Assembly: GCA_030917815.1 (NCBI GenBank)
Contig: JAUPTZ010000005.1
Span: 23,106-87,105, forward strand
Direction of reading: 5' to 3'
Length of the DNA: 64,000 nucleotides
Source: Candidatus Babelota bacterium
Lineage (GTDB): Bacteria > Babelota > Babeliae > Babelales > JAUPTZ01
Below are positions 23,160 through 57,499 of this stretch, piece by piece. Position 1 is the first letter of the stretch. Every line of letters starts with the position of its first letter. Both the position numbers and the translations under genes were made by a program. Below the pieces are notes generated by a model. That model saw nothing but the letters and a program-made list of their open reading frames with translations. It was not told where the DNA came from and did no database searches.

Positions 23160-23185
23160 ACAAACAACCCCTTAAGAAAACGATA

Positions 23186-32899: not shown

Positions 32900-34372
32900 A
32901 TGAACTATACGATAAAAACTATCATGATTTTATCCTGGCTGGCTATTTTATGTGGGACCATTTATGCCATAACCGACATAGCCCCGAACTCAGATGATAT
33001 CAGTCGCTTAATCGACAACCAAAACCGCTTTTCCCTCCTGCGCCCCCCTAAAAAGCCGACCACCCCCCTCCCATTCAATCAGCCCAAACTACCCCGAGCA
33101 GAAGCTGAATGGACCATTGTTATCCTGATACAGGCTAGCAACAACCTTGAAAGCTTTGCACACAAAAACATGAAGGAAATGATGAAGTGGGGCTCTTCAA
33201 ATCAAGTAAATATTCTTGTAGACCTCCATAAAGCCGGCGACAAATCCTGGAAATATCGCATTGAACCAGGATGCTGCGTAGTAGAAGAAGTATCGGCACG
33301 ATCGACACAGTCAACCATAGCAGAAGAAGTAATACACACAGCCCAATGGGCAATAAATACGTATCCAGCTAAAAAATATGCCTTTATCTTCTGGAACCAT
33401 GGCGCCGGCATCCTTGACCCAATGCCAGAGAAAAATAAACCTACCTACCTGAGCGCCCTTGGGGACAACTGGCGAACCGGTTACCTTATGGGCACCCCAG
33501 AAGACATTGCGCAACAAACCACTCGCGCCACACAGAACCTAATTCCGTCAGACAAGAGTATTTTGTTTGATGATGAACGCCATACCTATCTTTCAAACCC
33601 TGACCTTCGCACCACACTTCAAATCATTTCTACCAAGCTTCTTGGCGGTAAAAAAATAGATCTCATTGGTATGGACGCCTGCCTCATGGGCATGATTGAA
33701 ATTGCCGACCAAATAAAAGAGTTCGCCAACTACTTTGTCGCTTCACAGGAATTCGAATTCGCCCAAGGATGGGCGTACGGAGATATCATTGAAAAACTCT
33801 CGGCGCACCCAACCGCAATTGGCGGCAAAGAGCTGGGTAAAATCATCGTCGACACATTTGAACAATACTACATAAGCAGAACCAGTTACTTCACACAATC
33901 CTGCATTGATTTAAGTAAAATACCGGCGCTAAAAGACAACGTCGACAATCTCGCAATTGCACTATTGTGTGGCAAGAAACAGGACAGTACCCGCATGAAA
34001 CTATTCATACAACAAGCACGTTGCCAATCGTTATCATTCAGCCTGTCTGACTACATTGACCTACACTCGTTTTACCAGGAACTTCTCAAAATAACCCAAT
34101 ACGCACTAGACAACCCGAGCAACCGAAGCATTCCAATGCCACGCATCGAAAATGATTTACTTAAAAACATTAAGGTTCTACTAACTGAAGGCATTGCGCT
34201 CCTAAAGGACGCCGTCACCGGAAACACCGCCGGTCGCTATCTTTCAAAGGCAAGCGGACTATCAATTTATTTTCCACAAAAATCGGTTGATCTCTCCTAT
34301 GCTGCAACCGAGTTTGCGCAGACCACGTCGTGGCCAGCACTCATAACCGATCAGATAGAAAGCCGCTATTAG
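32900..34372 (+). CDS. exported C11 (clostripain-family) cysteine peptidase, paralog 1
   Basis: Catalytic His motif FIFWNHGAG and Cys motif [10 protein letters not shown]-terminal signal/anchor. Confidence 0.7.
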
Positions 34373-36220: not shown

Positions 36221-37000
36221 ATGGTAATAAACTCGATTAACGCCTTGGGACTGTATACCCAAAAAGTAGTTTATCGCTGTGGAGTATTTACACTCTTTCT
36301 ACACGAATCGGTTCGCTCATTCCTCGAACACGGGGTCAATACCGGCAAACTCCTTGTTCAAATAAATTACATCGGCGTCAATTCACTTGTCGTGATTATG
36401 ACAACCGGCCTATCGGTCGGTGCAGTACTTGCCATGCAAACCCATATTGGCCTTAGTCGCTTTGGTGCATTTCAATTTATTGGACCGGTCGTATTTTTGG
36501 GCATGGTTCGAGAATTTGGACCGATCCTCAGCTCAATCATGGTCGCTGGACGAGCAGGGTCGGCTATGACGGCCGAAATCGGCACCATGCAGATCACCGA
36601 ACAGATTGATGCACTTCGTACGCTAGGCCTCAACGTGAAGCAGTATTTGATTGTGCCACGCATTGTCGCCTCAACCATCAGCATGCCTCTTATTTCTCTG
36701 TTTTGCTCACTCTGTGGAATTCTTGGTGGCTACATTGTGGCGGTTGGTGTCCTGAAAGTTAATCACGAAATTTACATCTCTTCTATTCAGGAAAACGTAG
36801 TAGTAAACGATATTCTTCACGGCTTGGTAAAATCTATAGTGTTTGGGTTCCTGGTTGGTAGCATAGCTACCTTTAAAGGGTATCAAACCCGCGGTGGGGC
36901 ACGTGAAGTAGGTAACTCCACAACCCAAAGCGTAGTAAGCGCCAGTCTCGCAACACTCATCGCCGACTATATCCTTGTTTCGATTGCAAAAGCCCTATGA
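36221..37000 (+). CDS. mlaE: MlaE-type ABC transporter permease
   Basis: REFGPILSSIMVAGRAGSAMTAEIGTMQITEQIDALRTLG is the conserved MlaE/YrbE block. Confidence 0.85.
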   Translation: MVINSINALGLYTQKVVYRCGVFTLFLHESVRSFLEHGVNTGKLLVQINYIGVNSLVVIMTTGLSVGAVLAMQTHIGLSRFGAFQFIGPVVFLGMVREFGPILSSIMVAGRAGSAMTAEIGTMQITEQIDALRTLGLNVKQYLIVPRIVASTISMPLISLFCSLCGILGGYIVAVGVLKVNHEIYISSIQENVVVNDILHGLVKSIVFGFLVGSIATFKGYQTRGGAREVGNSTTQSVVSASLATLIADYILVSIAKAL

Positions 37001-37773
37001 AGCAAAATTACATTGTAAAGCTCATCAATCTTTTTAAAGCATTTGGCCCCAAAGTCATTAGCAAGGACCTGAATCTTTCTATTATTGAGGGAGAGTTTTT
37101 GGCTATCATTGGCCGATCGGGCGAAGGAAAATCGGTACTTCTTAAACAAATGATCGGACTCATCACACCGGACAGTGGCACCGTAATCGTTGACGGTGTT
37201 GATCTTACCGCCCTCAAAGATGTACGGGAACACGATAAGGTGTTCCAGTCATGCGGCTATGTGTTTCAGTTCGCTGCGCTCCTCGATTCATTAACCGTTG
37301 CAGAAAATGTTGGCATAACACTGTTTGAAGAAGGAAAAAGCCTCAAGGAAGTATTACCACTCGTAAGAGACAAGCTCGTAGCCGTAGGCCTTGACCCGGC
37401 CATAGCCAACCGATATCCCTCTGAGCTTTCTGGTGGTATGAAGAAACGAGTAGGATTAGCCCGCACCTTAATGCGCAGCCCCAAAATTCTTATCTACGAT
37501 GAACCAACAACCGGACTCGATCCGATATCGGTGCGCATGATTCACGAATTAATGCGTACTACTCACGACGCAAACAAAACAACAACAGTTGTTATCTCCC
37601 ATGATCCGGACGTATTTAACTACGCCGATCGAGTAGCCATGCTGCATGAGGGACGCATCTTGTATATTGGCGATGCCAAGACAATCTGGCAAGAAACCAA
37701 TCCATACATTTACCAGTTCATCCGTGGCCTCTCTGAAGGACCCATTACCATGGCTTCTGAGAAGGTTAAGTAG
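36997..37773 (+). CDS. mlaF: MlaF-type ABC transporter ATP-binding protein
   Basis: Walker A GRSGEGKS, signature LSGGMKKRVGLAR, Walker B ILIYDEPT. The start overlaps mlaE by 4 nt. Confidence 0.85.
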   Translation: MKQNYIVKLINLFKAFGPKVISKDLNLSIIEGEFLAIIGRSGEGKSVLLKQMIGLITPDSGTVIVDGVDLTALKDVREHDKVFQSCGYVFQFAALLDSLTVAENVGITLFEEGKSLKEVLPLVRDKLVAVGLDPAIANRYPSELSGGMKKRVGLARTLMRSPKILIYDEPTTGLDPISVRMIHELMRTTHDANKTTTVVISHDPDVFNYADRVAMLHEGRILYIGDAKTIWQETNPYIYQFIRGLSEGPITMASEKVK

Positions 37774-39479: not shown

Positions 39480-40466
39480 ATGAGCAAAGTTGTTGCACCA
39501 GAAGTAATAGAAAACATTAAAGAGGAAGGCGCCCGTTGGCAGGCACTTAAACAAGAAATCAAAAAGCGGGTCATCGGCCAAGAGCAAGTCATTGATCGCA
39601 TCCTCATCGGTATTCTCTGTAACGGACACATCCTCCTTGAAGGGGTGCCCGGTCTTGCAAAAACAACACTGGTAACCGCCGTTGCCGACGCCATAGGGCT
39701 CGACTGCAAAAGAATTCAGTTTACCCCCGATCTTTTACCGGCCGACGTTATTGGAACACAGATCTATAGCCCAAAAACCGAAGACTTCACTACAAAAAAA
39801 GGCCCTGTATTTGCCAACCTGGTTCTTGCCGATGAAATTAACCGAGCCCCCGCGAAAGTGCAGTCGGCTCTTCTTGAGGCGATGCAGGAACGACAGGTAA
39901 CCATTGGTGACGAAACCTTTAAGCTCCCAAGCCCTTTCTTTGTATTGGCAACGCAAAATCCAATCGATCAGGAGGGTACCTACCAGCTACCCGAAGCACA
40001 AATGGACCGCTTTTTGCTCAAAGTAATCGTCCATTATCCCACCATCGAAGAAGAAAAAAAGATCATTAAGTCGGTTTTTGAGCCGGAAAAAGTAAATCGT
40101 GTGCTCACCGCCAAGGAAGTAAAAGCGACACAGGCACTAATTCAAGAGATTTACGTCGATGACAAAGTGGTAGACTACTTGCTGTCCATCATTTTTGCTA
40201 CGCGTCAACCGGAACTCTACAAACTTGATAGTCTTACGCCACTCATTATGCATGGCGCCTCACCCAGAGCCACATTGGCCTTATTTCAGGCGGCAAAAGC
40301 TCACGCGTTTTTAAAGAAGCGCCATTTTGTTATCCCTGATGACATTAAGGCAATCGCGCCCGATGTATTAAGGCACCGCATACTCCTTACCTATCAAGCA
40401 GAAGCAGAGTCGATGCACGGAGATGCTATTATACAGGCCATTTTAAAGACACTTCCATCACCATAA
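39480..40466 (+). CDS. moxR: MoxR-family AAA+ ATPase
   Basis: Walker A GVPGLAKT, Walker B LADEINRAPAKVQSALLEAMQERQVT, and the ATQNPIDQEGTYQLPEAQMDRF block. Confidence 0.9.
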   Translation: MSKVVAPEVIENIKEEGARWQALKQEIKKRVIGQEQVIDRILIGILCNGHILLEGVPGLAKTTLVTAVADAIGLDCKRIQFTPDLLPADVIGTQIYSPKTEDFTTKKGPVFANLVLADEINRAPAKVQSALLEAMQERQVTIGDETFKLPSPFFVLATQNPIDQEGTYQLPEAQMDRFLLKVIVHYPTIEEEKKIIKSVFEPEKVNRVLTAKEVKATQALIQEIYVDDKVVDYLLSIIFATRQPELYKLDSLTPLIMHGASPRATLALFQAAKAHAFLKKRHFVIPDDIKAIAPDVLRHRILLTYQAEAESMHGDAIIQAILKTLPSP

Positions 40467-40662: not shown

Positions 40663-40696
40663 GACCCTGAATATTTTGGCATGCAAAGGTATTGAT

Positions 40697-41830
40697 ATGG
40701 TAAAACAGCAGTTGTGGATTATAAATAGCGCGCTTGTCGTCCTTGCGATAGTAAGTATTGCGCTTGCGCAGCTTGTTAAGCAAGACCTGCCGTCAATTCC
40801 AACGCGGCGGCGAAACTACGCACAGGCCGAAATAAAGCCACCTCGACTCATTGTAAGCCCGGAAAAAATATATCAAAACGATCTATTTGATACTTTTTCG
40901 GCACCAGCCGAGCCGGTCCCAACCTCAAAAAATCTTGTGACTCCGATTCCACAATTCAGCGTCAAAAATTCAGCAGCACCTACTAAGAACCAAAAGGTAG
41001 ATTTTATTCCACCGCTCGATATCACGATAAAAGGGATTATCATGTCCCCACAGCCAAAAAATAGCATTGTGATGGTAGCCGACTCAACCGGCAAAGAGCA
41101 AATGTATCACATAGGTGACAAAATTAATGACGGCCAAGTACTTAAAATCACTAAAAATCAAATGGTTGTAATTCGCGGTAACGGCCAGCAAGAAACATTC
41201 TTCTTACGTAAGATGGAAAAGCTCAATCCAGGACTTCCATCATGGGATTTTGCCATTAAGAAGATCGATGATGCTCTCTATCACCTTGATCCGGTAGAAA
41301 TTTTAAAAGAGATCACCAGCATTGGTGAGGTAATTGAAGCACTTGATTTATGCGGTGCATATAAAGATGGCAAATCAATTGGTCTCTTAATAGGATCAAT
41401 TAAACACCATCCACTAGCAGAGAAGCTTGGCTTGGCCTCGGGAGATATTATAACCAAAGTTAACAGCCTACCAGTCACCGACTCAAAAGAGCGTATTGCG
41501 GTGTACGATGCTATTGCCGAACTTTCAATGGGTGGCTACATTCACGTTTCGGTAATGCGTAGCGATAAATCATTAGAGCTTTCCTATCTCTTAAAACGGC
41601 TTGAGCGTCCATCACCATTTAGTTCATCAAGCGGCGATACTAAAGATGGTAAAGACACACAGGGATCAGACCTATTTCAGTTAGGTAAAGATGCTCAGCG
41701 GCAGCAAAATCGTCGTCGTTTTGACCAAATTCATCGGACCTCAGAACAGCATGACGCCGCTATATCTGAAATGCGCAAAAAAATGCTCGATGATATGCGT
41801 ACCCGCGCTCCAAATAGACGTGTATTATGA
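40697..41830 (+). CDS. GspC-like inner-membrane protein (TM + HR/PilP-like beta domain + PDZ)
   Basis: An N-terminal TM helix (WIINSALVVLAIVSIALAQLV), then ITIKGIIMSP...VMVADSTGKEQMYHIGDKINDGQVLKITKNQMVVIRGNG (GspC HR-like), then a PDZ-like region (LAEKLGLASGDIITKVNSLPV). The track start at 40676 is also possible. Confidence 0.55.
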   Translation: MVKQQLWIINSALVVLAIVSIALAQLVKQDLPSIPTRRRNYAQAEIKPPRLIVSPEKIYQNDLFDTFSAPAEPVPTSKNLVTPIPQFSVKNSAAPTKNQKVDFIPPLDITIKGIIMSPQPKNSIVMVADSTGKEQMYHIGDKINDGQVLKITKNQMVVIRGNGQQETFFLRKMEKLNPGLPSWDFAIKKIDDALYHLDPVEILKEITSIGEVIEALDLCGAYKDGKSIGLLIGSIKHHPLAEKLGLASGDIITKVNSLPVTDSKERIAVYDAIAELSMGGYIHVSVMRSDKSLELSYLLKRLERPSPFSSSSGDTKDGKDTQGSDLFQLGKDAQRQQNRRRFDQIHRTSEQHDAAISEMRKKMLDDMRTRAPNRRVL

Positions 41831-41852
41831 GTGAACGAAGGATATAAGAAGT

Positions 41853-44756
41853 ATGAATAAAAAATTTATTTTTACCATTGCACTCATTGTCTGCGTTCAA
41901 GCGTATCCACAAAAAATGTTTGACGATTTTCTGTCGGCACAAACGCCCTCATTAGAAAATAGATTTGATGATGATGTACTCGCAGCCACACCATCTCTAA
42001 GTTTAGGCAATGAATCGGCACTCACCAAAGAAGCACAGAGAAATCCGGATCTTTTTGGCCCTGTTGATGAAAAAAAAGATGTGTATTTAAATTTTGAAAA
42101 CGCCGATCTAAAAAATTTTGTTGAATATATTGCCGACATCAAAGGCATGAATATTATTCCGGACAAGTCGATTGCCGGCAATAAAATCTCGCTCAACTTT
42201 CGCAATCCAGTAAGTAAGACCGGCGCATGGAATACGTTCCTTACCGTACTTGAAATGGCCAACCTCAGTATCGTAAAGGTTGGTAACCTGTATCGCGTAA
42301 TAACTAAAGATAAAAAATTTAAACTGCCGCTGCCTACCTTTATTGGCGTCAATCCAAACACGCTTCCTGATTCTGATGCCACAATTCGCTACATAGCAAT
42401 GCTCGACAATATTCCAGCTCAGGACGTAAAAAATCTTCTACAAAGCATGCTCAGTCAACCGACGAGTCTTCTCGATCCACCAAATATTAATGGGTTCATC
42501 ATTACCGACTGCTCCTGCGTTATAAAAGCGGCGATGCAGGTACTTAATGAGCTCGACCAAACCGGTGTTGAAGAATCGGTTTACGTCATTCCATTAAAAA
42601 AAGCCAACGCGAGTGATGTAAAAACATTGTTTGAAACACTTATTACCACCAAAGACTCAAACCCCTTAGCGAAACTTCTTGGCAAGCCGCAAGACTCAAG
42701 CGAATACTTTACTCCTGGTACTCGTATTATTGCCGAAGATAGAACGAATAAACTTATCTTATTGGGACAGCGACAATCACTCGAAAAAATAAAAAACTTC
42801 ATCACTGAACATATCGATACCGATCTCAAACAAGCAAAATCACCCCTCAGGATTTACGACCTACAAAACGCTAACGTAACCGACATTGTTACCATCCTGA
42901 AAAGTGCAACCGATTCATCGCAATCATCTGCTGCCGGCAAGCAGGCCGCTACTTTTGGTGCAATTCGAGATGGAGCAAAATATTTTAAAAATATGACCTT
43001 TCAGGCCGATAAAGAAGGGAATCGATTGCTTGTTTCTTGCACCGAAGATGGTGACTGGGATCTCCTAAAGGAGACTATAAAGAAATTAGATACCGCACAG
43101 CCACAAGTTGCCATGCAAATGCTGATTGTAAGCATCAGCGCAACGGCACTCACGCAGCTCGGCGGGCAGTTTCGTAGTCCAAACCAAAATAGTGTTGGCG
43201 GCGGCATAAACTTTCAAACAGCAGCAGTATCACAACCGGTATTCACTACCGACAGCTCCGGCAACACACAAAGTGTTCTTGGTAACATGCTCAATTCGCT
43301 TGCGCTAGGACGAGGTATGACTGCAGTAAGTCTTGGTAACGCTGGTGGCAGCAATGGAGTCTGGGGTGTATTCAATGCCATTAAGCAACAAACCGATGCC
43401 ACCATATTATCCCAGCCCTTTGCCGTTGCCGCTAACTGCACCGAAACAAAACTCTTGGTCGGTAGTACCAGTTATATTACTACACAGTCAACCGGTGGTG
43501 CTGGCGCTATTTCCGGTAAAACACCGGCCGATGCAAATACTACCATTACATTTACCCCACAAGTAAACAGCGAAGGTGTCATTCGTTTAAAAATTACGGC
43601 CGACATTAAAGAATTCGTTCCTGAATCGGCCAACTTAAGCACACAATCAAAGTACCTTGATACGGTTGTTACCGTAGCCAACGGACAAGTTTTGGTTATC
43701 GGTGGTTTTATTCAAACCAAAATAACCGATAACGGAGGTCAAACCCCACTTCTAGGCTCCATTCCTATCTTGGGATGGATTGCTAAGAACCTTTCTCGTA
43801 CCGTTGAAAAAAGCTACCTCTTTCTATTTTTATGTCCAACCATTCTAAAACCTCGCACATCCCCCGGCATCGGCACGTATAGCAAAATGTGTCTTCATCA
43901 AGCGGCAAAAGAAGTGGAAGAAACAATTAAAACAACAAAAACAAATGACCCTATCCACAACTGGCTCTTCAACTCAAGTGGCGAAAATTATTCACATAAA
44001 GTGATCGACTTCGCTAACGCACGCTATCAGCCCAATACGGTCGATATTCGCTACGATCCTTACTACCGCAGTTCGATGGCAGATACTGGGAAACAGGCCC
44101 CTCCACTAAAAATAGATGGTGAATCATCGTCGCCAGGGGCATATATGCAAACCCAGCATATGTATTCTGATGAAGCAAAGATTCAAGAAAAATCAACAAA
44201 GGTGGTTGGCGAAAAGGTGGCAAAGGAGGTAGAAATGCCACAGCAGCCACTAGAAAATAAACCGCTAAAGAAAAAGGAATCCCGCAAGAAGCCTGAGAAG
44301 GTTATCTTTGACCCACAAAGGGAAGTGATAAGAGATGACAACGACGTAATAGCCGCTATTGAAGCTCCATTGCCAGCGCCAACGACCGCAGGGCATCTCG
44401 CACCCGAACCGGCAAACATTGCAATGTTTGATGTAGATACTGCACTCGCTGAAAAGCGATCAAGATTACGCTCACTTCTTGCACAAGGCTCACTGGGAGA
44501 CCTGCTTACTAAGCCGGCAACACAATCATCACCAATTAAAGAGATGACAGAAGAAGAGTTTAATGCATCGTATGAAATCGAGCCGGAAATCGAAACCGTG
44601 CCTGAATCAACACCTGTGGCACAAGATTCATTTACACTTACCCGACGAAATGGCATACAAAACCTCTTTGCTACAAGCAATCAAGGCGAAGTAAACACAT
44701 CTTCACTAAATCGACCTGCAAGTAGTGGCCTACAATCACTGTTTGGAGGTAAATAA
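41853..44756 (+). CDS. secretin 1 (GspD/PilQ family) with a ~300-aa low-complexity C-terminal extension
   Basis: N0-like VYLNFENADLKNFVEYIADIKGMNIIPD, repeated N-domains, and a secretin core (PQVAMQMLIVSIS...TPLLGSIPILGWIAKN...YLFLFLCPTILKP). The tail from about 43860 is rich in E, K, P and S. Confidence 0.85.
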   Translation: MNKKFIFTIALIVCVQAYPQKMFDDFLSAQTPSLENRFDDDVLAATPSLSLGNESALTKEAQRNPDLFGPVDEKKDVYLNFENADLKNFVEYIADIKGMNIIPDKSIAGNKISLNFRNPVSKTGAWNTFLTVLEMANLSIVKVGNLYRVITKDKKFKLPLPTFIGVNPNTLPDSDATIRYIAMLDNIPAQDVKNLLQSMLSQPTSLLDPPNINGFIITDCSCVIKAAMQVLNELDQTGVEESVYVIPLKKANASDVKTLFETLITTKDSNPLAKLLGKPQDSSEYFTPGTRIIAEDRTNKLILLGQRQSLEKIKNFITEHIDTDLKQAKSPLRIYDLQNANVTDIVTILKSATDSSQSSAAGKQAATFGAIRDGAKYFKNMTFQADKEGNRLLVSCTEDGDWDLLKETIKKLDTAQPQVAMQMLIVSISATALTQLGGQFRSPNQNSVGGGINFQTAAVSQPVFTTDSSGNTQSVLGNMLNSLALGRGMTAVSLGNAGGSNGVWGVFNAIKQQTDATILSQPFAVAANCTETKLLVGSTSYITTQSTGGAGAISGKTPADANTTITFTPQVNSEGVIRLKITADIKEFVPESANLSTQSKYLDTVVTVANGQVLVIGGFIQTKITDNGGQTPLLGSIPILGWIAKNLSRTVEKSYLFLFLCPTILKPRTSPGIGTYSKMCLHQAAKEVEETIKTTKTNDPIHNWLFNSSGENYSHKVIDFANARYQPNTVDIRYDPYYRSSMADTGKQAPPLKIDGESSSPGAYMQTQHMYSDEAKIQEKSTKVVGEKVAKEVEMPQQPLENKPLKKKESRKKPEKVIFDPQREVIRDDNDVIAAIEAPLPAPTTAGHLAPEPANIAMFDVDTALAEKRSRLRSLLAQGSLGDLLTKPATQSSPIKEMTEEEFNASYEIEPEIETVPESTPVAQDSFTLTRRNGIQNLFATSNQGEVNTSSLNRPASSGLQSLFGGK

Positions 44757-44758
44757 TT

Positions 44759-46381
44759 ATGCTGATACTGAAAAACCTATTTTTCCCAAGGCTCTTGCAT
44801 AACAAGCCACTGTTTCCTATCCGTCGCGTTGCCATTCACATCGAATCAACAACCATTCATGTTGCACATGTTCAGGATACACGTACAAAGACAATAATTA
44901 CTGCTCTTGAGGAATATCAAATTAACCCGGGTGACGCACGCACATACACGCAACGCCTCGTTGCTACCTTAAAAAAAATAGCCCCTAAAATAGAAAAAAA
45001 TGCAGAGATTATTGTTACCTTTCCTTCATCAAAAGTGGTAGTAAAAGAGCTCACGCTGCCGTTTCTCGATGAAGAAAAAATCCGCATGGTTATCGAATAT
45101 GAAATAGAGGCAGTAATTCCCTTTAAGCTGGAAAATGCGGTAACCGATTTTATCATTCTCAGCCGCAGTGAAGTTAAAGAATCATCCAATGTATTGGTTA
45201 TCGCTGCACAAAAAGAAGAAGTCAAAAAAATTGTAGACGCTCTTCATAAGGCCGATATAGAGCCTCACCAGATTACTATTGATTTATTCAGTATCATCTC
45301 ACTTTTCGGCCATATTCCTACCTATAGCAAACTTAAGCATGCCTATGCAGTTGTTGATATGGGCCCCCAGTCAACACGAATCGCACTTATCAACAGCCAA
45401 ACCATGATCGCCACCAGAACGCTCTTGCAAGGATCGGAGCTCCCTACAAAAATTAATGATGATGAAATCGGACAACCCATTGATTTAGCAACACATCATA
45501 GTAGATTATTCAGCGAGATTAGCTTCACGTTAGATTCTTTTGAAATCAAGCAGTCAAGTGTTCCAGAGATTGAAAAACTCTTTTTTATTGGAACACCAAG
45601 CGTGTTCAGCGGCTTTGAGGAATACGCAAAAAAAGCTATCCATTGCCCATGCGAAGTTCTTGCAACCGAACAAATAACAACTAATCCAACCATACAATCA
45701 AAAATCTCATTGCAGCCCGCTTCATGGCAAACCTACAGCCGCGTTCTTGGCGCTGCATTGGTCTCTCCTGCGTACGAATCATTCACCCTTCGCCGCAAGG
45801 AACTGGAGCTATCACCACGCCCGTTAATACAACAGCAGTTGCTCGCCGGCATTATCCTCTTTACTCTTGCCCTAGGTGCCCTGGGACTTCAGGGGTATTT
45901 TCAAGTCGAGGAAGGGACTGAGCAAATAACACTCCTCGAGGAGCGTGAAATCAAACGGCTGCGCTCAGCTCTCCCAACCGATCATCCCGGCACAAAAAAG
46001 AAAACTATTAAAACATTGGCTCGAGAAGTCGAAACATATGTGCAAGAACAGGAAGAATTATGGTCGGCCTTTGCCACTCAGCGCTTACGTCCCCTAGAGA
46101 TATTGCAAGAACTCACCATACTCTTCAATAAAAAGAAGTTTGATGTTGATATTGAGCACATTATCATTAGTCGCAACGATGCGCCAAATCCTATTGAAAT
46201 CAAAGGAGTGTTTCGTTCAAAAACAGGCAAGGAAGATTTCAAGCATTTCACCGAACTAGCTGATGATATTGGCAAGCTCGCCAAGATGCTCGTATTAACC
46301 GAAGAAATTGATCCATCTCAGCTACCGGACAAGGGAGTTAGTTTCACTGCTCACTTTAAATTGCGCGAAGGGGCATTATGA
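44759..46381 (+). CDS. PilM-PilN fusion / GspL-like assembly-platform protein
   Basis: An actin-like PilM pattern (VTFPSSKVVVKELTLPF...VLVIAAQKEEV...AVVDMGPQSTRIALI), then a TM helix (LLAGIILFTLALGALGLQGYF), then a periplasmic domain of about 170 aa. Confidence 0.6.
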   Translation: MLILKNLFFPRLLHNKPLFPIRRVAIHIESTTIHVAHVQDTRTKTIITALEEYQINPGDARTYTQRLVATLKKIAPKIEKNAEIIVTFPSSKVVVKELTLPFLDEEKIRMVIEYEIEAVIPFKLENAVTDFIILSRSEVKESSNVLVIAAQKEEVKKIVDALHKADIEPHQITIDLFSIISLFGHIPTYSKLKHAYAVVDMGPQSTRIALINSQTMIATRTLLQGSELPTKINDDEIGQPIDLATHHSRLFSEISFTLDSFEIKQSSVPEIEKLFFIGTPSVFSGFEEYAKKAIHCPCEVLATEQITTNPTIQSKISLQPASWQTYSRVLGAALVSPAYESFTLRRKELELSPRPLIQQQLLAGIILFTLALGALGLQGYFQVEEGTEQITLLEEREIKRLRSALPTDHPGTKKKTIKTLAREVETYVQEQEELWSAFATQRLRPLEILQELTILFNKKKFDVDIEHIIISRNDAPNPIEIKGVFRSKTGKEDFKHFTELADDIGKLAKMLVLTEEIDPSQLPDKGVSFTAHFKLREGAL

Positions 46382-46935
46382 GTTTTTTAGAAACCATTGC
46401 TGACACCATTTCACAGCAAACTAAGAAGCAGCACAAAATCTTTATCCTCACCATCGGCTCGCTTCTTTCTCTGTCACTTATTGGTATCGTCTATTTTTTA
46501 TACGCACAGCGAGATGGGGACATCCAAACCATAACCTCACTCTATGAACAAATAAAAAAGAACGACTCACTGATGGCAAAAAGTGAACGCACAAAAGCGG
46601 AAGAAGATCGTGTTCAAGCACTCCTTGAAAGCTATAAGGGGTTTAGCATCAAAACATTTTTTGAAACACTCACTTCAGAACAAAAAATGAAAGCCGAGAC
46701 CGGATGGGAGACCGCAACTTGCAATATTGAGGGTAATGAAACCTTTGATGAGATCGTGCTTGCCGCTACCTTCAAGGGGCAGACAACGCAAACATTAGTA
46801 AGTCTACTGAATGCACTTGAAACACATGAAAACGTCTACATAAAAGAGCTAGAAATAAAAAAAGAAGGCAAAAAGAACATCACTTTCGATCTCACAATAG
46901 CAACCAAAAAACGTAAACAATTCTGGGAAGATTAG
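46378..46935 (+). CDS. PilO/GspM-like bitopic membrane protein
   Basis: 185 aa with an N-terminal TM helix (IFILTIGSLLSLSLIGIVYFLY). Its size and position after the L-like gene fit, and it overlaps that gene by 4 nt. The call rests on context, not motifs. Confidence 0.4.
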   Translation: MSFLETIADTISQQTKKQHKIFILTIGSLLSLSLIGIVYFLYAQRDGDIQTITSLYEQIKKNDSLMAKSERTKAEEDRVQALLESYKGFSIKTFFETLTSEQKMKAETGWETATCNIEGNETFDEIVLAATFKGQTTQTLVSLLNALETHENVYIKELEIKKEGKKNITFDLTIATKKRKQFWED

Positions 46936-46938
46936 GCC

Positions 46939-49425
46939 ATGATGGGACATCGCTATTTATCACTTCTATGTATGTGTATGTTGATTGCGTGCTGCCTGGC
47001 TGCAAAAGAAGAGGGTACGCAAGGGTCGGTGCAAAAGTTCTCATTTAAAAAAGAAAAAAAGGCTGATGCTTCTGAAACTCGACAAAATGATGCAGTAAAG
47101 ACAATAACACTAAAGTCGGACAGTCCCGTTACACCACAGGAAGGCACAGCGAGTGAAAAAACTCCCTCAAGCGACCAGCCTGCTGAGGGAACGATTTACT
47201 TTAATTTTGATAATGCATCGCTTACCACGGTACTTAATTATCTGGTTGATCGAAAGAATATGGACGTTATTCCACACAAGGATCTTCAGAACATCAAGGT
47301 AAGTCTTGTCTCGCGTGAACCAATGTCACTTGCTGAGGCATGGGAAACGGTGCTTGTATTGATGGAGGCAAACAGCTTTACCATTGTGAACGTCAATGGA
47401 ATTAACCGAGTTGTTCCGCTCAACGCCTCATCTCAAAACTCATTACCCTGCTATAGCTCGATTCGCGGAACCAGGCCACAAGACCTACCTGATACTAACG
47501 CCATATGTCGCTACATTTATTTCTGTAAAAACTTAAAGGTTGATGTCGCTTCAAACATTATTTCGCCCCTTGTAAGTGACAAAGCGGTACAGGTTAACCC
47601 AACATTGCAAGCATGTATCATTACTGATAACTGCAATTATATTAAATCGGCACTTCGTATCGTAGAAGAACTAGACATAAACGGGATGCGACAAACTATT
47701 AAGATTCTTCAATTAAGGCATACCAACGCCGATCAACTTGCAAAGCTCTTGAACGAACAGATCGTACAGGGTCAGCAGCAAGATAATTCTAAAATTCGTA
47801 TCATTGGTGAAGAGAAGAGGCGTGAAATGTCGTTCTTCTCAAAAGATACAAAAATATTCTCAGAGCCTATGCACAATCGCCTCATATTTATGGGTATGGA
47901 GGATGCCATTAATCGCATAATAAATTTCATTAATAAGCACCTTGATGTACCACTTGACGCTGCAAAATCACGGCTTCGCATTAAAGAACTCAAATACTAC
48001 AGTGCACCAGCTATGAAAGAGTTGCTTGATCAAATGATTACACCGCCAAAGGGGCTCGGTGGCACGACCGGACTTGTCGAAGGGGAATACAAATTTTTCC
48101 AAGATGTTGTTATCACACCGGAAACGCCAAGTGGCAGCGGCGGTACCGTTTCAGGAACCGGAAACAGATTAATCATTTCTTGCAATCCTGAAGACTGGCA
48201 ACGTCTCTCTACATTCATAGACCAAATAGATAAGCCACAACCACAGGTTGCGATTGAAATGATGATTGTTGACGTGGAAATTGATGATGAAATTGGGCTC
48301 GGGGGTAAGTTCAGAACACCAAATGGCCTCCTGGGCAATAACATCAATGCTTCCTCTTTTATGCTTGATAGCGCAAGTACTAGCTTAAGTACGGTACCAA
48401 CCAACGTGCTTAATAACATAGCACTCGAGCCAAACTCATCTATCATATCGTTTGGTAATGCGTCATCAGACAAGATCTGGGGCGCTATTCGTACCATGTA
48501 TGGCATTAGCCATAGTAATGTCATTTCACAGCCCTACCTGGTAGCAAATAATAACACCAAGGGCACGGTAAAATCTTCAGTAACGCACTTGATACCAACC
48601 GTTCAAACAAACAATAGCACACAACCGGTGCAAACAGATGTGCCACAATCGGCCGATATCACCGCCCAAATTACCCCTCATGTGAACGCCTCCGGAATTA
48701 TTAAATTGGAAATCCGTATAACCGTAGACGAATTTAAATCGGCAAAAGACTCCAACGCCGATAAAACAAACAGAGAAATCACTATACAAGCCGTATCTAT
48801 GGCGGCTGGCGAAGTTTTAGTTCTCGGTGGACTCGCAAACAGTAAGCATGCAAATTCCACCTGGGCTGTTCCTATTTTGAGCGCCATCCCCATTTTAGGA
48901 AATTTATTTAGAGACAGGACTCGAGAAACCATCAAATCAAATCTCTACATATTCATACGACCAACAGTGATAAAGCCGCACTTTAACCTAGGGGCCGATG
49001 AATATACACAACTAAAACTTGATTATGCAAAATACCAAGTTTTAACCAGTGATGACTCCTCACTAAGCCAAGATCCAATTCAGCGCTATTTATTTGCCCC
49101 AACCCATTATAATATGAAGCAAAAGGCTATAGATAATAAAACAAATCGAATGCCAGTCATTGATGACTTCGCTGAACGTCGTCACCTTCCTAATGAAGTA
49201 GAAATGGCCAAAGACCCGCTCTTTCATAAGATTCAGGAAACATCCGATATCACCTATGAACCAGAAGAGGGATTTGCATCGATGCCTCACGTTAATCCAT
49301 CCGAGTACACTACGCCAGGGATTTTTGAAAATCTAATGTTTGACGACCTTTTCAATGAAAAAAGTCAAAACACTAACACCCCGCAACTACTTGGGAAGCG
49401 ACAGTCGCCCTTGCGCACTCAGTAA
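46939..49425 (+). CDS. secretin 2 (GspD/PilQ family), probable lipoprotein
   Basis: N0-like IYFNFDNASLTTVLNYLVDRKNMDVIPH and secretin core PQVAIEMMIVDVE...VPILSAIPILGNLFRD...LYIFIRPTVIKP. The lipobox LIAC (Cys18) follows a basic n-region. Confidence 0.85.
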   Translation: MMGHRYLSLLCMCMLIACCLAAKEEGTQGSVQKFSFKKEKKADASETRQNDAVKTITLKSDSPVTPQEGTASEKTPSSDQPAEGTIYFNFDNASLTTVLNYLVDRKNMDVIPHKDLQNIKVSLVSREPMSLAEAWETVLVLMEANSFTIVNVNGINRVVPLNASSQNSLPCYSSIRGTRPQDLPDTNAICRYIYFCKNLKVDVASNIISPLVSDKAVQVNPTLQACIITDNCNYIKSALRIVEELDINGMRQTIKILQLRHTNADQLAKLLNEQIVQGQQQDNSKIRIIGEEKRREMSFFSKDTKIFSEPMHNRLIFMGMEDAINRIINFINKHLDVPLDAAKSRLRIKELKYYSAPAMKELLDQMITPPKGLGGTTGLVEGEYKFFQDVVITPETPSGSGGTVSGTGNRLIISCNPEDWQRLSTFIDQIDKPQPQVAIEMMIVDVEIDDEIGLGGKFRTPNGLLGNNINASSFMLDSASTSLSTVPTNVLNNIALEPNSSIISFGNASSDKIWGAIRTMYGISHSNVISQPYLVANNNTKGTVKSSVTHLIPTVQTNNSTQPVQTDVPQSADITAQITPHVNASGIIKLEIRITVDEFKSAKDSNADKTNREITIQAVSMAAGEVLVLGGLANSKHANSTWAVPILSAIPILGNLFRDRTRETIKSNLYIFIRPTVIKPHFNLGADEYTQLKLDYAKYQVLTSDDSSLSQDPIQRYLFAPTHYNMKQKAIDNKTNRMPVIDDFAERRHLPNEVEMAKDPLFHKIQETSDITYEPEEGFASMPHVNPSEYTTPGIFENLMFDDLFNEKSQNTNTPQLLGKRQSPLRTQ

Positions 49426-50639
49426 TGCCACAATGCGTACTTGATGTACTTCACACCGTAGGTTTTTTACTTGCTAGTGGATTGATTGGCACCAGCTTTT
49501 TTATATACACACAGACTGAGCGTGTTCATGTATCCATCCTAACACCCCTATCACCACTGTTCTCAGTAGGAGCAACCCTTGGCGGCATTGGCCTGTACCA
49601 CATGCTCTCAGGCTATTGCTTCTTTGCACTCCTAGCTGCCATAGGATTCGCATGGCATGCTTTTTACCGTACGAGAAATTATATTCCCTTACATGCTGCT
49701 GCCTGTGCGCTTTGTGCCGTAATGACGCTCTGTGTGGATCATCATCAATTTACCGAAAAAAAAGATCTCTTGCTGCAAGGGAGACACACACTGCACGGGC
49801 TCGTCATTGATCGTAAACAATGGGCACACCGACTTAATGCAACGGTAATAACTATTAACCTCACCCATCTGGATTATGCACCCACTAGCGGCCAATTTAA
49901 ATTTTTTGTTTACACTAACCCATCAATAACAGTGGGTGATTATGCGATCTTTTTTCATACTACCGCATCGCCAGCCCCTCAAAAGAAAGATTTTCTCTCA
50001 TATGCACTGCGTGACCACTCTCTAGGCTCTTGCTTTACGCCAATACTACAAGCACGAATATTCCCCACCAAGTCTTATTACAGCCGCTGGATTTCGTGGT
50101 GGTACATCTGGCGGGAAAACCTCTATAGATCACTACAAGAAACTATTCCAGCTATACCATTCACGTACATATCAGCACTCTTTTTTGGCAACAAAGAATG
50201 TGCTGAATTCTTAGACATTCGTGCAAAGTTCACTCGCTGGGGACTAACTCATTATTTAGCTCGCTCCGGTCTTCATATTTCATTACTCATCACTCTTTGG
50301 GTGGGAGTATTCCGATTCATCCCTCTCCCAATCACATTAAAAGCACCGATTTTATTCGCCATACTCTTTCTCTACGACCATCTTTCGTGGGCAAGCATCT
50401 CATTTAACCGAGCACTGTGGCTTTGGTTTTTTTATTTAGGAAGCTGGCTCGTAAAAGCAACAGCAACCCCACTGTTTGGCCTTTCTCAACTCTCATTAGT
50501 AATCCTACTCTATAATCCCTGGCAATCAGGATGTCTTGATTTTCAATTGAGCTTCTTATTGACCATGATTCTTATGATATATGGCTACTATCATCAACAA
50601 TCGTTTCTCCTGTCTTATTGCGCCAAGAAAAAGAAATAG
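49425..50639 (+). CDS. short ComEC/Rec2-like membrane channel protein (no beta-lactamase-fold domain)
   Basis: ALFFGNKECAEFLDIRAKFTRWGLTHYLARSGLHISLL matches the ComEC competence-domain motif (G..H..A.SGLH). The N-terminal TMs plus an OB-like insert resemble DUF4131. The protein is only 404 aa. Its ATG overlaps the secretin-2 TAA (TAATG). Confidence 0.6.
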   Translation: MPQCVLDVLHTVGFLLASGLIGTSFFIYTQTERVHVSILTPLSPLFSVGATLGGIGLYHMLSGYCFFALLAAIGFAWHAFYRTRNYIPLHAAACALCAVMTLCVDHHQFTEKKDLLLQGRHTLHGLVIDRKQWAHRLNATVITINLTHLDYAPTSGQFKFFVYTNPSITVGDYAIFFHTTASPAPQKKDFLSYALRDHSLGSCFTPILQARIFPTKSYYSRWISWWYIWRENLYRSLQETIPAIPFTYISALFFGNKECAEFLDIRAKFTRWGLTHYLARSGLHISLLITLWVGVFRFIPLPITLKAPILFAILFLYDHLSWASISFNRALWLWFFYLGSWLVKATATPLFGLSQLSLVILLYNPWQSGCLDFQLSFLLTMILMIYGYYHQQSFLLSYCAKKKK

Positions 50640-50684
50640 GGTATACAAACGGTTCCCTTTTTGTTTCTTTGCGTAAGGATGTTT

Positions 50685-52124
50685 ATGCTACATAGCTTTC
50701 TAATCTGCTTGCATGTGTTTTTAGCGCTCTGTTGCCTTCCTTCGCTTGGCAGCGCAAAAACAGGACTGCATACAAACCCTCAAAGAGAACGTGCAACCGA
50801 TACTTATGTGCTACCAAAGACACCGGCGCATAAAGAAATTACTCGCGAACTCTCTCCACAAAATCAGCAAAAAGAATGGAATATTTTCATCTATATTGCC
50901 GGCAACAACAACCTCTATCGCTTTATTGAAACCAACATACAGCAGGCATTGGCAATTGGATCAAACAGCTACATTAATATCGTCATCCAAGTCGATAAGT
51001 TTGGCTCCCAAGAAGTAACTCGCTCATTGATACAAAAAAATAATGTTGTTACCTACTGGCGCTCGTCAGATGTACCACAAGCCGAGCGAAATGCTCACCC
51101 AGAACTCTACAACAGCGGGTCGGTACAAAATTTTACCGACTTCCTGCAAAGTGGCATGCAAAAATTTAGCGCAAAAAAACAATGCGTCATCGTATGGAAT
51201 CACGGCTCTGGCGTGATTGATCCTGCTGGTTGGCGCCAGCCACTCAATATCGGCATTCCACCGCTCACGCGCGGCATGGCATTCAACGATAAATATGGCT
51301 ATTACCTCTCAAATCAAGACCTTTCTCAGGCCCTGACAACGGTATCAAAAACCTGCTTAAACAACAAACCAATTGACATTCTTGGGCTTGATCTTTGCGT
51401 ATGTGGGCAAATAGAAATCGCGGCACAAGTTAAAGGCGCTGTTCAATACGTTGTTGCATCACAAGAGGTAGAGCTTGCTTATGGATGGAATTACACAAAA
51501 GCGTTCACTCGCGTATCAAAAGAAATCCGCACACCACTTGAATTCTCCATTGATATCATAAATGCCTATCGAGAAGAATATATTAGCACTATGCCCGACT
51601 ATACCCTGGCCGTGTATGACCTCACCCAGAAGCCCCTTGGAGGACAGAGCACCTATTTTGAATTACTTGAGGAATGCATAAGTGATATCGCCCTCAGACT
51701 TATTATGCTTATGCGTAGCTCACAAAAAAACCTTATACGACAAGTGCTCAGCGATATCCGCAAAAAAAGAACTCTCTGTTGTGATTTTTACTGCAACGAA
51801 TATATCGATCTACACTTGTTTCTCATTAGTTTGCAAAATAGCTTCCGGCAGGTCCTCAACCTAAATGATTTCCGCCACAATTATCCGGACACTGCACGTA
51901 AGATTCAAGACACCATTAATCGCTGCGTACATGCGCTAGAATTTTTGTACAAAGTGGTACCATTCTATAGCTCTGGCATCGCATTTTCCGGCAACCCAAT
52001 GCGCGCAAGGGGCATCTCCATAGCCTTCCCACTCCGTATGGTACACCCCTCATATTACAAAACTACTTTTGGACAAAAAACCGAGTGGGTTAATTTCTTA
52101 AAAGAGTTTCTCCTCGCAAAATAG
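50685..52124 (+). CDS. exported C11 (clostripain-family) cysteine peptidase, paralog 2
   Basis: VIVWNHGSG (His motif), LGLDLCVCG (Cys motif) and a signal peptide. The ATG at 50685 has AAGGA 5 nt upstream, and the track ORF starts at TTG 50661. Confidence 0.65.
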   Translation: MLHSFLICLHVFLALCCLPSLGSAKTGLHTNPQRERATDTYVLPKTPAHKEITRELSPQNQQKEWNIFIYIAGNNNLYRFIETNIQQALAIGSNSYINIVIQVDKFGSQEVTRSLIQKNNVVTYWRSSDVPQAERNAHPELYNSGSVQNFTDFLQSGMQKFSAKKQCVIVWNHGSGVIDPAGWRQPLNIGIPPLTRGMAFNDKYGYYLSNQDLSQALTTVSKTCLNNKPIDILGLDLCVCGQIEIAAQVKGAVQYVVASQEVELAYGWNYTKAFTRVSKEIRTPLEFSIDIINAYREEYISTMPDYTLAVYDLTQKPLGGQSTYFELLEECISDIALRLIMLMRSSQKNLIRQVLSDIRKKRTLCCDFYCNEYIDLHLFLISLQNSFRQVLNLNDFRHNYPDTARKIQDTINRCVHALEFLYKVVPFYSSGIAFSGNPMRARGISIAFPLRMVHPSYYKTTFGQKTEWVNFLKEFLLAK

Positions 52125-52847: not shown

Positions 52848-52915
52848 AAAGTCGTGCGGCTATATGATGTTCTCCAGATGTCTCACTTGTAACGATTGCA
52901 CTGTCCGAGTAGGAA

Positions 52916-52969
52916 TGTGGATAACTCTGTGGATAACTTGTGGATAACTTGTGGATTGGATGTGGATGA
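52916..52969 (-). repeat. DnaA-box array, left arm (5 boxes, minus orientation)
   Basis: TGTGGATAA at 52916, 52928 and 52939 (perfect complement of TTATCCACA), plus TGTGGATTG at 52950 and TGTGGATGA at 52961. Spacing is 12/11/11/11 bp. Confidence 0.85.
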
Positions 52970-53057
52970 CATTCGAATGGCGCGTGCCTGAGGAGCAATG
53001 CAAGGACCTGCGCTGGATTTGAGCCACCAGAGCCATTATTGAGAGGGTTGCAAAAAC

Positions 53058-53098
53058 TTATCCACAAGTTATCCACACCAATCCACAAGTTATCCACA
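53058..53098 (+). repeat. DnaA-box array, right arm (4 boxes, plus orientation)
   Basis: TTATCCACA at 53058, 53069 and 53090, and CAATCCACA at 53079. Spacing is 11/10/11 bp. The arm is an imperfect inverted copy of the left arm, sharing a 21-mer (TGTGGATAACTTGTGGATTGG). Confidence 0.85.
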
Positions 53099-53156
53099 TA
53101 AGCCGAAATCCTAAAAATGCCCAAAAACGCAGGGGTTTTACGGCCGAAAGGCGGAG

Positions 53157-53196
53157 TTATCCACATTTTTCCCTTCCCCTACTATTATTAATACTA
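53157..53196 (+). promoter_or_regulatory. terminal DnaA box + C-rich cluster + DnaA-trio-like triplets
   Basis: TTATCCACA (53157-53165), then tttttCCCTTCCC, then CTA CTA TTA TTA ATA CTA (53179-53196). On the complementary strand these read 3'-GAT/AAT-5' in 5 of 6 triplets, as in the DnaA-trio element described for B. subtilis oriC. Confidence 0.6.
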
Positions 53197-53373
53197 AAAA
53201 CGTATGAAATAAAGTAGTTATAGGTAACCCAAAAAATTGAAAAAAGCCGTTACTTCACTTTCTGTGCAAAATCGGTAGACTAGTACCCATAACAGAGTGT
53301 GCTGGTATTTAGACTTCCGGGGCGATAGATTGAGGCTCCGGATTTTTCTTTAAGCGTAATTGGAGTTTATAGC

Positions 53374-56752: not shown

Positions 56753-57499
56753 TTATGGTGTGTCATCTCCAAACGAGACTTCTTGGCTAGCGCTTGGGGT
56801 AATCGGTATTGGAAGGGGCATGTTCGCCTGAGGTGTTGTTGCAACCGGGTTGACCGGTATCGCTACAGGCTCGGGAGTGGGAGCTTCGCTGCTTAATGGG
56901 GCTGGTTTGCTTTTGGTGGATTTCTTTGGCGTTGATAGCGTGCTGCCACTTTCGGCTAGCGCAGAAGGCGCTGCAGGGATTACAATGGTAGGTAGTGGGT
57001 TTTGAAAAGCGAGCGCTTTAAGTGTGGCGCTTAGTTTTGTTGCTGCGGCAATGTATCCGTTAAGTGCTTTTTCATGTCTGACCTTTCTCTTTATCATTTC
57101 CGGTGTTAATGATGTACCTGCAGTTTCTGCGGGCGCAGCCGGTATGTTGTTTAGCCAGGTGTTTCCCTCATTAATTTTATTTGTTAGGTATTGAGCCGAT
57201 GCAGCTGATGTGCTTGAGCCAAAATAGGATCGCCATTCATCGGCGCGCTGATTAAGAAGGTTGTCGATTGAGTTGTAGGTCATTTTGAAGCAATGTAAGA
57301 CGGTATTACCTATATCTGCCGCTTGCATGGTTAGGTTGTCAAGCGAGGCTTGAAGAGCGCTAAAAGCTGGTGGTTGTGCGGGGGGGGTAGCGGCTTGTGG
57401 AGCCGGCTGAACTTGTGGTTGTCGCATTGCTTGCACTCTAGACGCAGCAATTTGCATAGGGGTGATGAGTAGGAGAATTGACAGTAAAAAAATCAGCAT
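56753..57499 (-). CDS. secreted Ala/Pro-rich hypothetical protein
   Basis: Signal peptide and P/A-rich termini. It shares a short LNGYIA motif with the upstream neighbour. Confidence 0.45.
   Translation of the reverse strand: MLIFLLSILLLITPMQIAASRVQAMRQPQVQPAPQAATPPAQPPAFSALQASLDNLTMQAADIGNTVLHCFKMTYNSIDNLLNQRADEWRSYFGSSTSAASAQYLTNKINEGNTWLNNIPAAPAETAGTSLTPEMIKRKVRHEKALNGYIAAATKLSATLKALAFQNPLPTIVIPAAPSALAESGSTLSTPKKSTKSKPAPLSSEAPTPEPVAIPVNPVATTPQANMPLPIPITPSASQEVSFGDDTP

Follow-up and report, generated by a model that had tools for sequence, protein, structure and literature searches.

The DNA analyzed in this study, a stretch of 64,000 nucleotides (nt) from contig JAUPTZ010000005.1 of a metagenome-assembled genome (MAG) of the phylum Candidatus Dependentiae (TM6), contains an operon encoding two paralogous secretins (Sec1 and Sec2) together with a GspC-like protein, a PilM-PilN fusion protein (PilMN), and a PilO-fold protein. 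This whole stretch is hereafter called the window. Its proteins showed 100% identity to those encoded on a 103-kb contig of a Dependentiae MAG. The gene order GspC-Sec1-PilMN-PilO-Sec2, preceded by a gene for a MoxR-type ATPase, is kept across the phylum, and the two secretins are conserved to an equal degree. These results suggest that the locus is the envelope-spanning module, comprising the alignment and outer-membrane parts, of the type IV filament machinery of Dependentiae, which would unite type II secretion system (T2SS)-type secretion with a type IV pilus (T4P)-like pilus; we put the probability of this reading at roughly 0.6. The gene order of the locus is unusual, but the doubled pore was already known.

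The five core genes and a short ComEC-like gene are tightly packed on the plus strand (Table 1), and the coordinates and spacing of their open reading frames (ORFs) match exactly those in a preliminary description of this DNA. The genes are separated by gaps of 22 nt (GspC-like/Sec1), 2 nt (Sec1/PilMN), and 3 nt (PilO-like/Sec2) or overlap by 4 nt (PilMN/PilO-like) and 1 nt (Sec2/ComEC-like). The identities assigned to them earlier are supported by Pfam and NCBIfam matches, by prediction of transmembrane (TM) helices, and, for the PilO-like protein, by an AlphaFold2 (AF2) model compared using Foldseek. Hydropathy indicated a single TM helix in each of the GspC-like, PilMN, and PilO-like proteins. 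Scans for promoters and terminators over 38.4-53.4 kb yielded sites no more numerous than in shuffled sequences and were uninformative on transcript boundaries, and Rfam and tRNA scans across the window gave no matches.

The gene order in relatives was surveyed with a Sec1-family profile and one genome per species, which yielded 67 loci, about 54 of them from Dependentiae/Babeliales, including the complete genome of Vermiphilus pyriformis. The window proteins were mapped by phmmer onto the six-frame ORFs of these loci. The order MoxR-GspC-Sec1-PilMN-PilO-Sec2 on a single strand was found in essentially every Dependentiae locus that was long enough (about 50 species). Successive genes of the five-gene core were a median of 15, -4, 1.5, and 14 nt apart, and the median distance from MoxR to GspC was 86 nt. 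A secretin of the Sec2 clade was present in all loci reaching that far. The conserved block is thus (MoxR)-GspC-Sec1-PilMN-PilO-Sec2 without ComEC, rather than the six-gene unit originally proposed. Genes located 3' of Sec2 varied between lineages, were housekeeping genes unrelated to filaments (among them LOG-like, DeoC, AspRS, enolase, LigT, and ankyrin genes), and were often convergent. Genes of 245 and 300 amino acids (aa) found 3' of Sec2 elsewhere were considered as homologues of the window genes at 56753-57499 and 58010-58924, which they are not. Outgroup loci were arranged as GspC-GspD-GspE (Aquificota-like) or as a secretin followed by a 567-aa ORF (Verrucomicrobia).

The linkage with MoxR had not been mentioned in the preliminary description. 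In 44 Dependentiae loci, the MoxR gene immediately precedes gspC in the same orientation. No other gene of the block is as conserved (67.5% mean pairwise identity), and MoxR remains with gspC in two loci (L036 and L054) where the synteny of the Mla genes upstream breaks. MoxR was not detected in three loci (L032, L035, and L052), and no VWA partner was recognized near it. MoxR may serve the machinery as a chaperone, or its position could be mere conserved synteny; its membership in the system is uncertain. The Mla genes, mlaE and mlaF of a lipid-asymmetry ABC transporter, are syntenic with MoxR-gspC in most Dependentiae loci. Lipopolysaccharide synthesis genes were not found in Chromulinavorax, a member of the Dependentiae.

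Both secretins are full-length proteins with GspD as their closest family. Sec1 consists of a signal peptide, an N0 domain, N-domains, and a secretin core, followed by a conserved C-terminal extension and a tail of low complexity (about 220 aa) that varies between orthologues. In Sec2, a signal peptide and a divergent N0 precede the N-domains, the core, and the same kind of C-terminal extension as in Sec1. Pfam Secretin matched Sec1 with 99.1 bits (E 2.7e-28) and Sec2 with 105.6 bits (E 2.8e-30), and neither protein lacks the secretin core. The Pfam N0 score was 50.2 bits for Sec1 and 22.8 bits, under the cutoff, for Sec2, the more canonical N0 being that of Sec1. The best NCBIfam model for both was GspD (TIGR02517; 287 bits for Sec1 and 231 bits for Sec2, both under the equivalog cutoff of 351), and the PilQ model (TIGR02515; 136 and 118 bits, cutoff 284) scored below it in both cases, as HofQ also did. 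No AMIN domain was matched in either protein by Pfam. Among solved structures, the best relatives of both were GspD chains, with 113-130 bits (Sec1 about 130), whereas solved PilQ reached 35-66 bits.

Sec1 and Sec2 align over 694 residues with 30% identity (320 bits, E 9e-100), and the alignment takes in the shared extension of about 75 residues past the secretin core. The motif DPIHNW..Y.HK..DFANARYQP in the Sec1 extension is near-invariant in Sec1 orthologues and was invariant in the 20 compared. This aromatic motif continues as ..D..DPYY, and the extension outruns the aligned S-domain region of solved GspDs; candidates for its binding partner are a pilotin, peptidoglycan, and the respective other secretin. 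The typing of the secretins rests on the family-model scores and on a crude neighbor-joining (NJ) tree of 98 secretins, in which all Dependentiae secretins grouped together against the Aquificota-like and Verrucomicrobia GspDs and the first- and second-position secretins formed separate clades. Among the 23 genomes in which every gene was intact, pairwise identity averaged 45% for Sec1 and 42% for Sec2; the region from N0 through the C-terminal extension was kept in both, and the N- and C-terminal tails were variable. The N0 and the start of the secretin domain, the latter probably extracellular, have diverged differently in the two proteins. Because Sec1 and Sec2 are mutual closest relatives, form position-specific clades, and show similar conservation, they descend from an old duplication of a GspD-type secretin, which is lineage-specific with respect to the sampled outgroups and has left two copies that are both constrained. 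This agrees with the earlier proposal of two full-length paralogues that were both maintained.

The suggestion that one secretin might be a self-piloting liposecretin assisting the other did not hold. A lipobox-like motif occurred sporadically in both orthologue sets (4 of 34 Sec2 and 5 of 48 Sec1), and the LIAC motif of the window Sec2 is absent from its closest relatives. A liposecretin identity of the HxcQ type was rejected, as the N-terminal lipobox cysteine is not conserved. No pilotin gene was identified at the locus.

The inner-membrane and periplasmic part of the locus comprises one protein with a homology region (HR) domain, one PilMN, and one PilO-fold protein, in line with the single C/L/M-type scaffold recognized earlier. 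The GspC-like protein contains an HR/T2SSC domain (Pfam T2SSC, E 9.7e-10, 38.9 bits against a cutoff of 27) and a PDZ domain whose matches stayed under the Pfam gathering cutoffs. The NCBIfam GspC models also scored under their cutoffs (GspC_delta, 85.6 against 150 bits; the other model, 47.3 against 101.6). Its gene lies directly 5' of Sec1 and was kept in every locus surveyed.

PilMN carries a cytoplasmic actin-like PilM domain, which matched Pfam PilM_2 (E 7.7e-19) better than T2SSL (E 0.0012), followed by a TM helix and a periplasmic PilN/PilO-like domain. A family profile built from 42 orthologues matched the entire length of solved PilM (3jc8_Ma, E 1.4e-28). In hhalign, the C-terminal residues of PilMN (about 200) could be aligned to the PilO-like family (probability 69%, E 4.4e-5, 151 columns), as expected for a PilN/PilO pair; together with the topology, this points to a PilN-like identity of that part. 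The fused architecture (520-580 aa) was represented by about 160 cluster representatives at 50% clustering, and those with a taxon name belong to Babeliales.

The 185-aa PilO-like protein had no Pfam match and only a weak one to GspM_XpsM (E 0.016). Since its family profile retrieved noise only from the PDB, the fold was taken from the AF2 model and Foldseek. The model, made with 19 homologues (pLDDT 80.6), shows an N-terminal TM helix, a long coiled-coil helix, and a C-terminal alpha/beta domain. Its best Foldseek match was PilO of Myxococcus (3jc8_Oa, E 1.8e-5), and Pseudomonas PilO was also matched (2rjz, E 1.2e-4, TMt 0.55; 5uvr, TMt 0.60). The 3-nt gap between the PilO-like and Sec2 genes holds no ORF for a PilP lipoprotein, and the sole HR-type domain is that of the GspC-like protein.

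Table 1. Genes, protein domains, and other features of the window, with positions counted from its first nucleotide
Feature	Position (nt)	Strand	Length or residues	Support
MoxR-type AAA+ ATPase	39480..40466	+		Pfam AAA_3 (E 5.7e-66) and AAA_lid_2
GspC-like bitopic inner-membrane protein	40676..41830 (ATG at 40697, the start in the preliminary description)	+		T2SSC and PDZ
GspC-like, TM helix		+	aa 13-31	Hydropathy
GspC-like, HR/T2SSC domain	40976-41206	+	aa 101-177	
GspC-like, PDZ domain	41375-41584	+	aa 234-303	
Secretin 1 (Sec1), GspD-type	41853..44756	+	967 aa	Pfam N0, two Secretin_N, Secretin
Sec1, N0		+	aa 79-149	
Sec1, secretin core	43377-43850	+	aa 509-666	
Sec1, C-terminal extension	43851-44087	+	aa 667-745	
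PilM-PilN fusion (PilMN)	44759..46381	+	540 aa	PilM_2, TM helix, GspL-like topology
PilMN, PilM domain		+	aa ~19-354	
PilMN, TM helix	45839-45895	+	aa 361-379	Hydropathy
PilMN, periplasmic PilN/PilO-like domain		+	aa 380-540	
PilO-fold protein	46378..46935	+	185 aa	AF2 model and Foldseek
PilO-like, TM helix		+	aa 21-39	Hydropathy
Secretin 2 (Sec2), GspD-type paralogue of Sec1	46939..49425	+	828 aa	Pfam Secretin, two Secretin_N, weak N0
Sec2, secretin core	48511-48975	+	aa 525-679	
Sec2, C-terminal extension	48976-49233	+	aa 680-765	
Short ComEC-like membrane protein	49425..50639	+	404 aa	Pfam Competence, weak DUF4131
MlaE and MlaF	36221-37773			
Three tandem M16 peptidases	17483-25972	-	921, 914, and 928 aa	
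OGFr_N domain protein	26103-27155			OGFr_N (E 5.3e-15)
Upstream C11 peptidase	32900-34372			
Downstream C11 peptidase	50661-52124			
Likely replication origin (between UDG and NusA)	52848-53373			
Candidate oriC, DnaA box cluster	52916-53165			
DnaA boxes of minus orientation	52916-52947	-		
DnaA boxes of plus orientation	53058-53165	+		

As stated in the preliminary description, no gene for a secretion ATPase (GspE/PilB), a platform protein (GspF/PilC), or a pilin was found in the window, either by Pfam on ORFs of at least 150 aa or by a six-frame scan for Walker A and pilin N-terminus motifs. Likewise, no GspE-type Walker A box or pilin N-terminal motif was found within 10 kb of the operon in any of the roughly 50 Dependentiae loci, and a search for motor genes past the window ends retrieved nothing but short Logan contigs, on which TsaD, Rho, and SecF were encoded. 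This absence had been regarded as an oddity. However, systems for type IVa pili (T4aP) are typically multi-locus, so that split loci are normal (Denise et al. 2019, PMC6668835), and PulE and PulF are listed for two other members of the phylum, Babela and TM6SC1. The COG counts in Babela/TM6SC1 are 3/2 for PulD, 2/2 for PulE, 2/2 for PulF, 3/0 for PulG, 1/1 for PilM, 1/1 for ComEC (COG0658), and 0/0 for ComEC with a metallo-β-lactamase (MBL) domain (PMC4378268, suppl. 7). One PulF gene of Babela stands alone among unrelated genes (PMC4378268, suppl. 5).

Compared with the outer-membrane complex and platform of T2SSs (Klebsiella Pul, Vibrio Eps, and Myxococcus Gsp), the locus has in common a GspC protein (TM, HR, and PDZ) directly 5' of a GspD-type secretin, a secretin with N0, N-domains, core, and S-like C-terminus whose best HMM and PDB matches are GspD, and a bitopic protein of GspL topology followed by a small bitopic protein of GspM/PilO fold. 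However, the gspE-K genes, which are typically part of one operon in T2SSs, are absent between gspD and the L/M-like genes, and the L-like protein has a complete PilM actin-like domain instead of the truncated GspL type. In addition, a second GspD paralogue closes the operon, and an extra conserved C-terminal motif follows the secretin core. The locus is therefore not a canonical T2SS, because it has no E-K genes and its chemistry is of PilM type and not GspL type.

The T4aP clusters pilMNOPQ (Pseudomonas, Myxococcus, Neisseria, and Thermus) share with the locus the order PilM, PilN, PilO, secretin and the separation from the motor (pilB/T), platform (pilC), and pilin genes (PMC6668835). In contrast to these clusters, PilM and PilN are fused, PilP is missing, the HR-domain protein is GspC-like and encoded upstream, and the secretin in the pilQ position is a GspD type without AMIN; it is not an orthologue of PilQ but a recent-lineage paralogue of the T2SS secretin. 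Thus, the locus is not a canonical T4aP cluster either, because it lacks both PilP and a PilQ-type secretin, and it resembles a T2SS/T4aP hybrid that falls outside strict membership of either. The pilus-like cluster Amuc_1098-1102 of Akkermansia (a secretin, the PilO-fold protein Amuc_1100, and the PilM-like Amuc_1101) also shows similarities: PilMN matched the Amuc_1101 PilM-like family (E 4.9e-14), both secretins matched the Amuc_1098 family weakly, and Amuc_1100 structures were among the fold matches of the PilO-like model. However, that cluster has one secretin and another gene order, the family matches are weak and far under the cutoffs, and no GspC-like protein is known in it.

In T2SS and T4aP structures, the HR domain binds the secretin N0, the periplasmic domains of PilN and PilO heterodimerize, and PilM contacts the motor and the platform. 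By analogy, the GspC-like protein, PilMN, and the PilO-fold protein may form one inner-membrane and periplasmic scaffold, in which the HR domain of the GspC-like protein would dock on the N0 of a secretin, the PilN-like and PilO-like periplasmic domains would heterodimerize, and the PilM domain would contact motor and platform, while Sec1 and Sec2 would form pores in the outer membrane. The motor ATPase(s), platform(s), (pseudo)pilins, and prepilin peptidase would be encoded elsewhere in the genome, just as pilMNOPQ lies apart from pilBCD and pilA in T4aP. The gene order may be read as two juxtaposed sub-modules, namely gspC-gspD1 as a T2SS-type pair and pilM::N-pilO-gspD2 as a T4aP-type pilMNO(P)Q set with a duplicated GspD in the pilQ position. 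Most likely, Sec1 would be the pore for effector secretion, Sec2 the pore for a pilus (possibly for DNA uptake), and the single scaffold would serve both. Sec1 is favored as the secretion pore because its N0 is more canonical and it adjoins GspC.

Several points weigh against this interpretation. The roles given to the two pores, secretion for Sec1 and the pilus for Sec2, are drawn from gene position and N0 divergence, and the presence of GspE/PilB, GspF/PilC, and pilins in this MAG is presumed from literature about other Dependentiae. The locus provides a single scaffold set for its two secretins, and a strict model of two independent machines is thus not encoded there. All curated equivalog cutoffs (TIGR02517, TIGR01713/NF041515, and TIGR01175) were missed. 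In the NJ tree, the secretins of three deep lineages (L048, L050, and L052) are placed close to the base and belong to neither of the main clades of Sec1 and Sec2, and positional orthology there is presumptive. Furthermore, electron microscopy showed no pili on Babela (PMC4776705).

Previous genome descriptions of TM6/Dependentiae share the doubled gspD with our locus, but as gene counts only. Each of the seven TM6 genomes compared was reported to carry two gspD genes and no pilQ, the TM6 core orthologues were said to include components of the T2SS and possibly of T4P, and the question was asked whether one gspD could replace pilQ (Yeoh et al. 2016, PMC4776705). A "derived pulD channel" was later suggested for type IV pili (Deeg et al. 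2019, PMC6561590). Among these two studies and Pagnier et al. (2015), the T2SS was described as the only secretion system in Babela, and type IV pilus (Tfp) assembly genes were reported. We did not find in the literature searched a description of the operon architecture or gene order, the single shared scaffold, the PilM-PilN fusion family, the PilO-fold protein (annotated as hypothetical), an analysis of the secretin paralogy, the MoxR linkage, or an experimental characterization. The earlier view of the gene order as undescribed therefore stands as far as the searchable literature goes, but the doubled gspD without pilQ had already been published (PMC4776705).

At the genomic level and across the phylum, the gene order directly supports what Yeoh et al. 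(2016) had raised as an open suggestion, namely that the role of PilQ passed to a duplicated GspD. As a natural T2SS/T4aP mosaic, the locus bears on the evolution of secretion systems from pili, and one scaffold with two pores poses a testable structural question, i.e., a shared platform versus a heteromeric channel. Dependentiae are widespread obligate parasites of protists, and the operon is probably the main gateway for their host-manipulating effectors.

The most novel alternative, although an unlikely one, is a single type IV filament machine in which Sec1 and Sec2 would be co-assembled or stand side by side on one GspC/PilMN/PilO platform, two motor/platform pairs encoded elsewhere would switch between them, and MoxR would act as a dedicated assembly chaperone. 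If true, this combination would be an architecture of no described secretion or pilus system. Similarly unlikely is one machine with a dual-secretin outer-membrane complex specific to Dependentiae, in which Sec1 and Sec2 would build a heteromeric ring, or stacked or adjacent rings, on one GspC/PilMN/PilO platform. The one scaffold set for two secretins, with PilM single-copy in Babela and TM6SC1, would fit such a complex, as would the retention of both secretin genes in one operon phylum-wide and under similar constraint, and the family-specific C-terminal extension common to both. On the other hand, our literature search for two-secretin or heteromeric secretin systems yielded nothing relevant, and thus no precedent for heteromeric rings. 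An identity of 30% is very diverged for a shared ring interface, and the two copies differ in how N0 and the start of the secretin domain diverged. Moreover, the two PulE and two PulF of Babela and TM6SC1 fit two filament systems better.

The ComEC-like gene raises another alternative, a dedicated DNA-uptake route from a secretin to an adjacent ComEC-like channel, by which a parasite that may lack nucleotide synthesis would scavenge nucleotides. T4P secretins (PilQ/HofQ) mediate DNA uptake in other bacteria, and in this clade the ComEC-like gene overlaps the Sec2 stop codon by 1 nt. In Chromulinavorax, none of the metabolic pathways was found to be complete (PMC6561590). The protein matched Pfam Competence with E 6.1e-17 over profile positions 12-142 of 270 (DUF4131 only weakly), aligned only to residues 243-379 of solved ComEC (9vc6_A, 827 aa), and scored 36.6 bits against TIGR00361, whose cutoff is 190. 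In its AF2 model (pLDDT 90.5), four TM helices at the N-terminus are accompanied by a beta-domain that matched OB folds and by some seven more helices, and the family combines an OB fold with helices of the competence domain; Foldseek returned OB-fold matches only and no ComEC chain. Within Dependentiae, the family is kept throughout the phylum with more than 100 homologues of about 360-410 aa, and the half-size competence domain is typical. The gene therefore encodes a genuine phylum-typical short ComEC and is not a pseudogene.

However, ComEC follows Sec2 in only 5 (L001, L002, L017, L025, and L039) of about 33 Dependentiae loci extending past Sec2, and unrelated genes occupy this place in the other loci (about 28). 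All five have the order ComEC-C11 peptidase-uracil-DNA glycosylase (UDG), and in three of them ComEC lies 317-1667 nt from Sec2. Because of this restricted occurrence, the adjacency is clade-specific, and ComEC is a lineage-specific neighbor and not a core component. The direct coupling of an outer-membrane secretin to ComEC that had been considered earlier is thus not borne out, and ComEC as an integral part of the system was rejected on synteny. In comparison with competence machineries, the protein contains only the first half of the competence domain and is without an MBL nuclease, there is no conserved linkage with a secretin, and no ComEA or DprA homologue was found by Pfam among window ORFs of at least 150 aa. 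Taken together, these results make a dedicated DNA-uptake route improbable.

It is very improbable that one secretin works outside a filament machine, as a stand-alone nozzle for non-protein export (exopolymer), or is a redundant or decaying copy: GspD/PilQ are reported as stand-alone slime-export nozzles in myxobacteria and cyanobacteria (PMC12475490), and a few MAGs have split secretin ORFs, but both secretins are full length from N0 through the S-like domains and equally conserved in nearly all genomes, and their tight operon linkage to scaffold genes favors a machine-associated role. The split ORFs affect Sec2 in L008, L033, and Vermiphilus (L052) and Sec1 in L047. Being scattered across the tree, they are more likely assembly or frameshift errors, although occasional pseudogenization could occur.

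Downstream of the operon, the 527-nt intergenic region between UDG and NusA contains seven perfect DnaA boxes (TTATCCACA), in minus and then plus orientation (Table 1), and no further box was found elsewhere in the 64 kb. The cluster lies 2.2 kb 3' of the operon and coincides with a sign change of the GC skew at about 53.0 kb; no dnaA gene stands beside it. Similar clusters adjoin UDG in L001, L002, L036, and L054. Judged from these sequence features, the region is a strong candidate for, and likely, the chromosomal replication origin (oriC). In L036 and L054, the candidate origin is situated 5' of MoxR-gspC, a position that points to an inversion around oriC. In the window, transcription of the secretin operon runs toward the candidate origin, i.e., head-on to replication.

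In addition, the window harbors three tandem paralogous genes encoding M16 (insulinase-type) peptidases. Two paralogous clostripain-family (C11) peptidase genes flank the region, of which the downstream one travels with ComEC and UDG in relatives of this MAG. A further gene encodes a protein with the conserved region of the opioid growth factor receptor (OGFr_N). Such domains are known mainly from eukaryotes, and the protein could therefore be a host-interaction effector.

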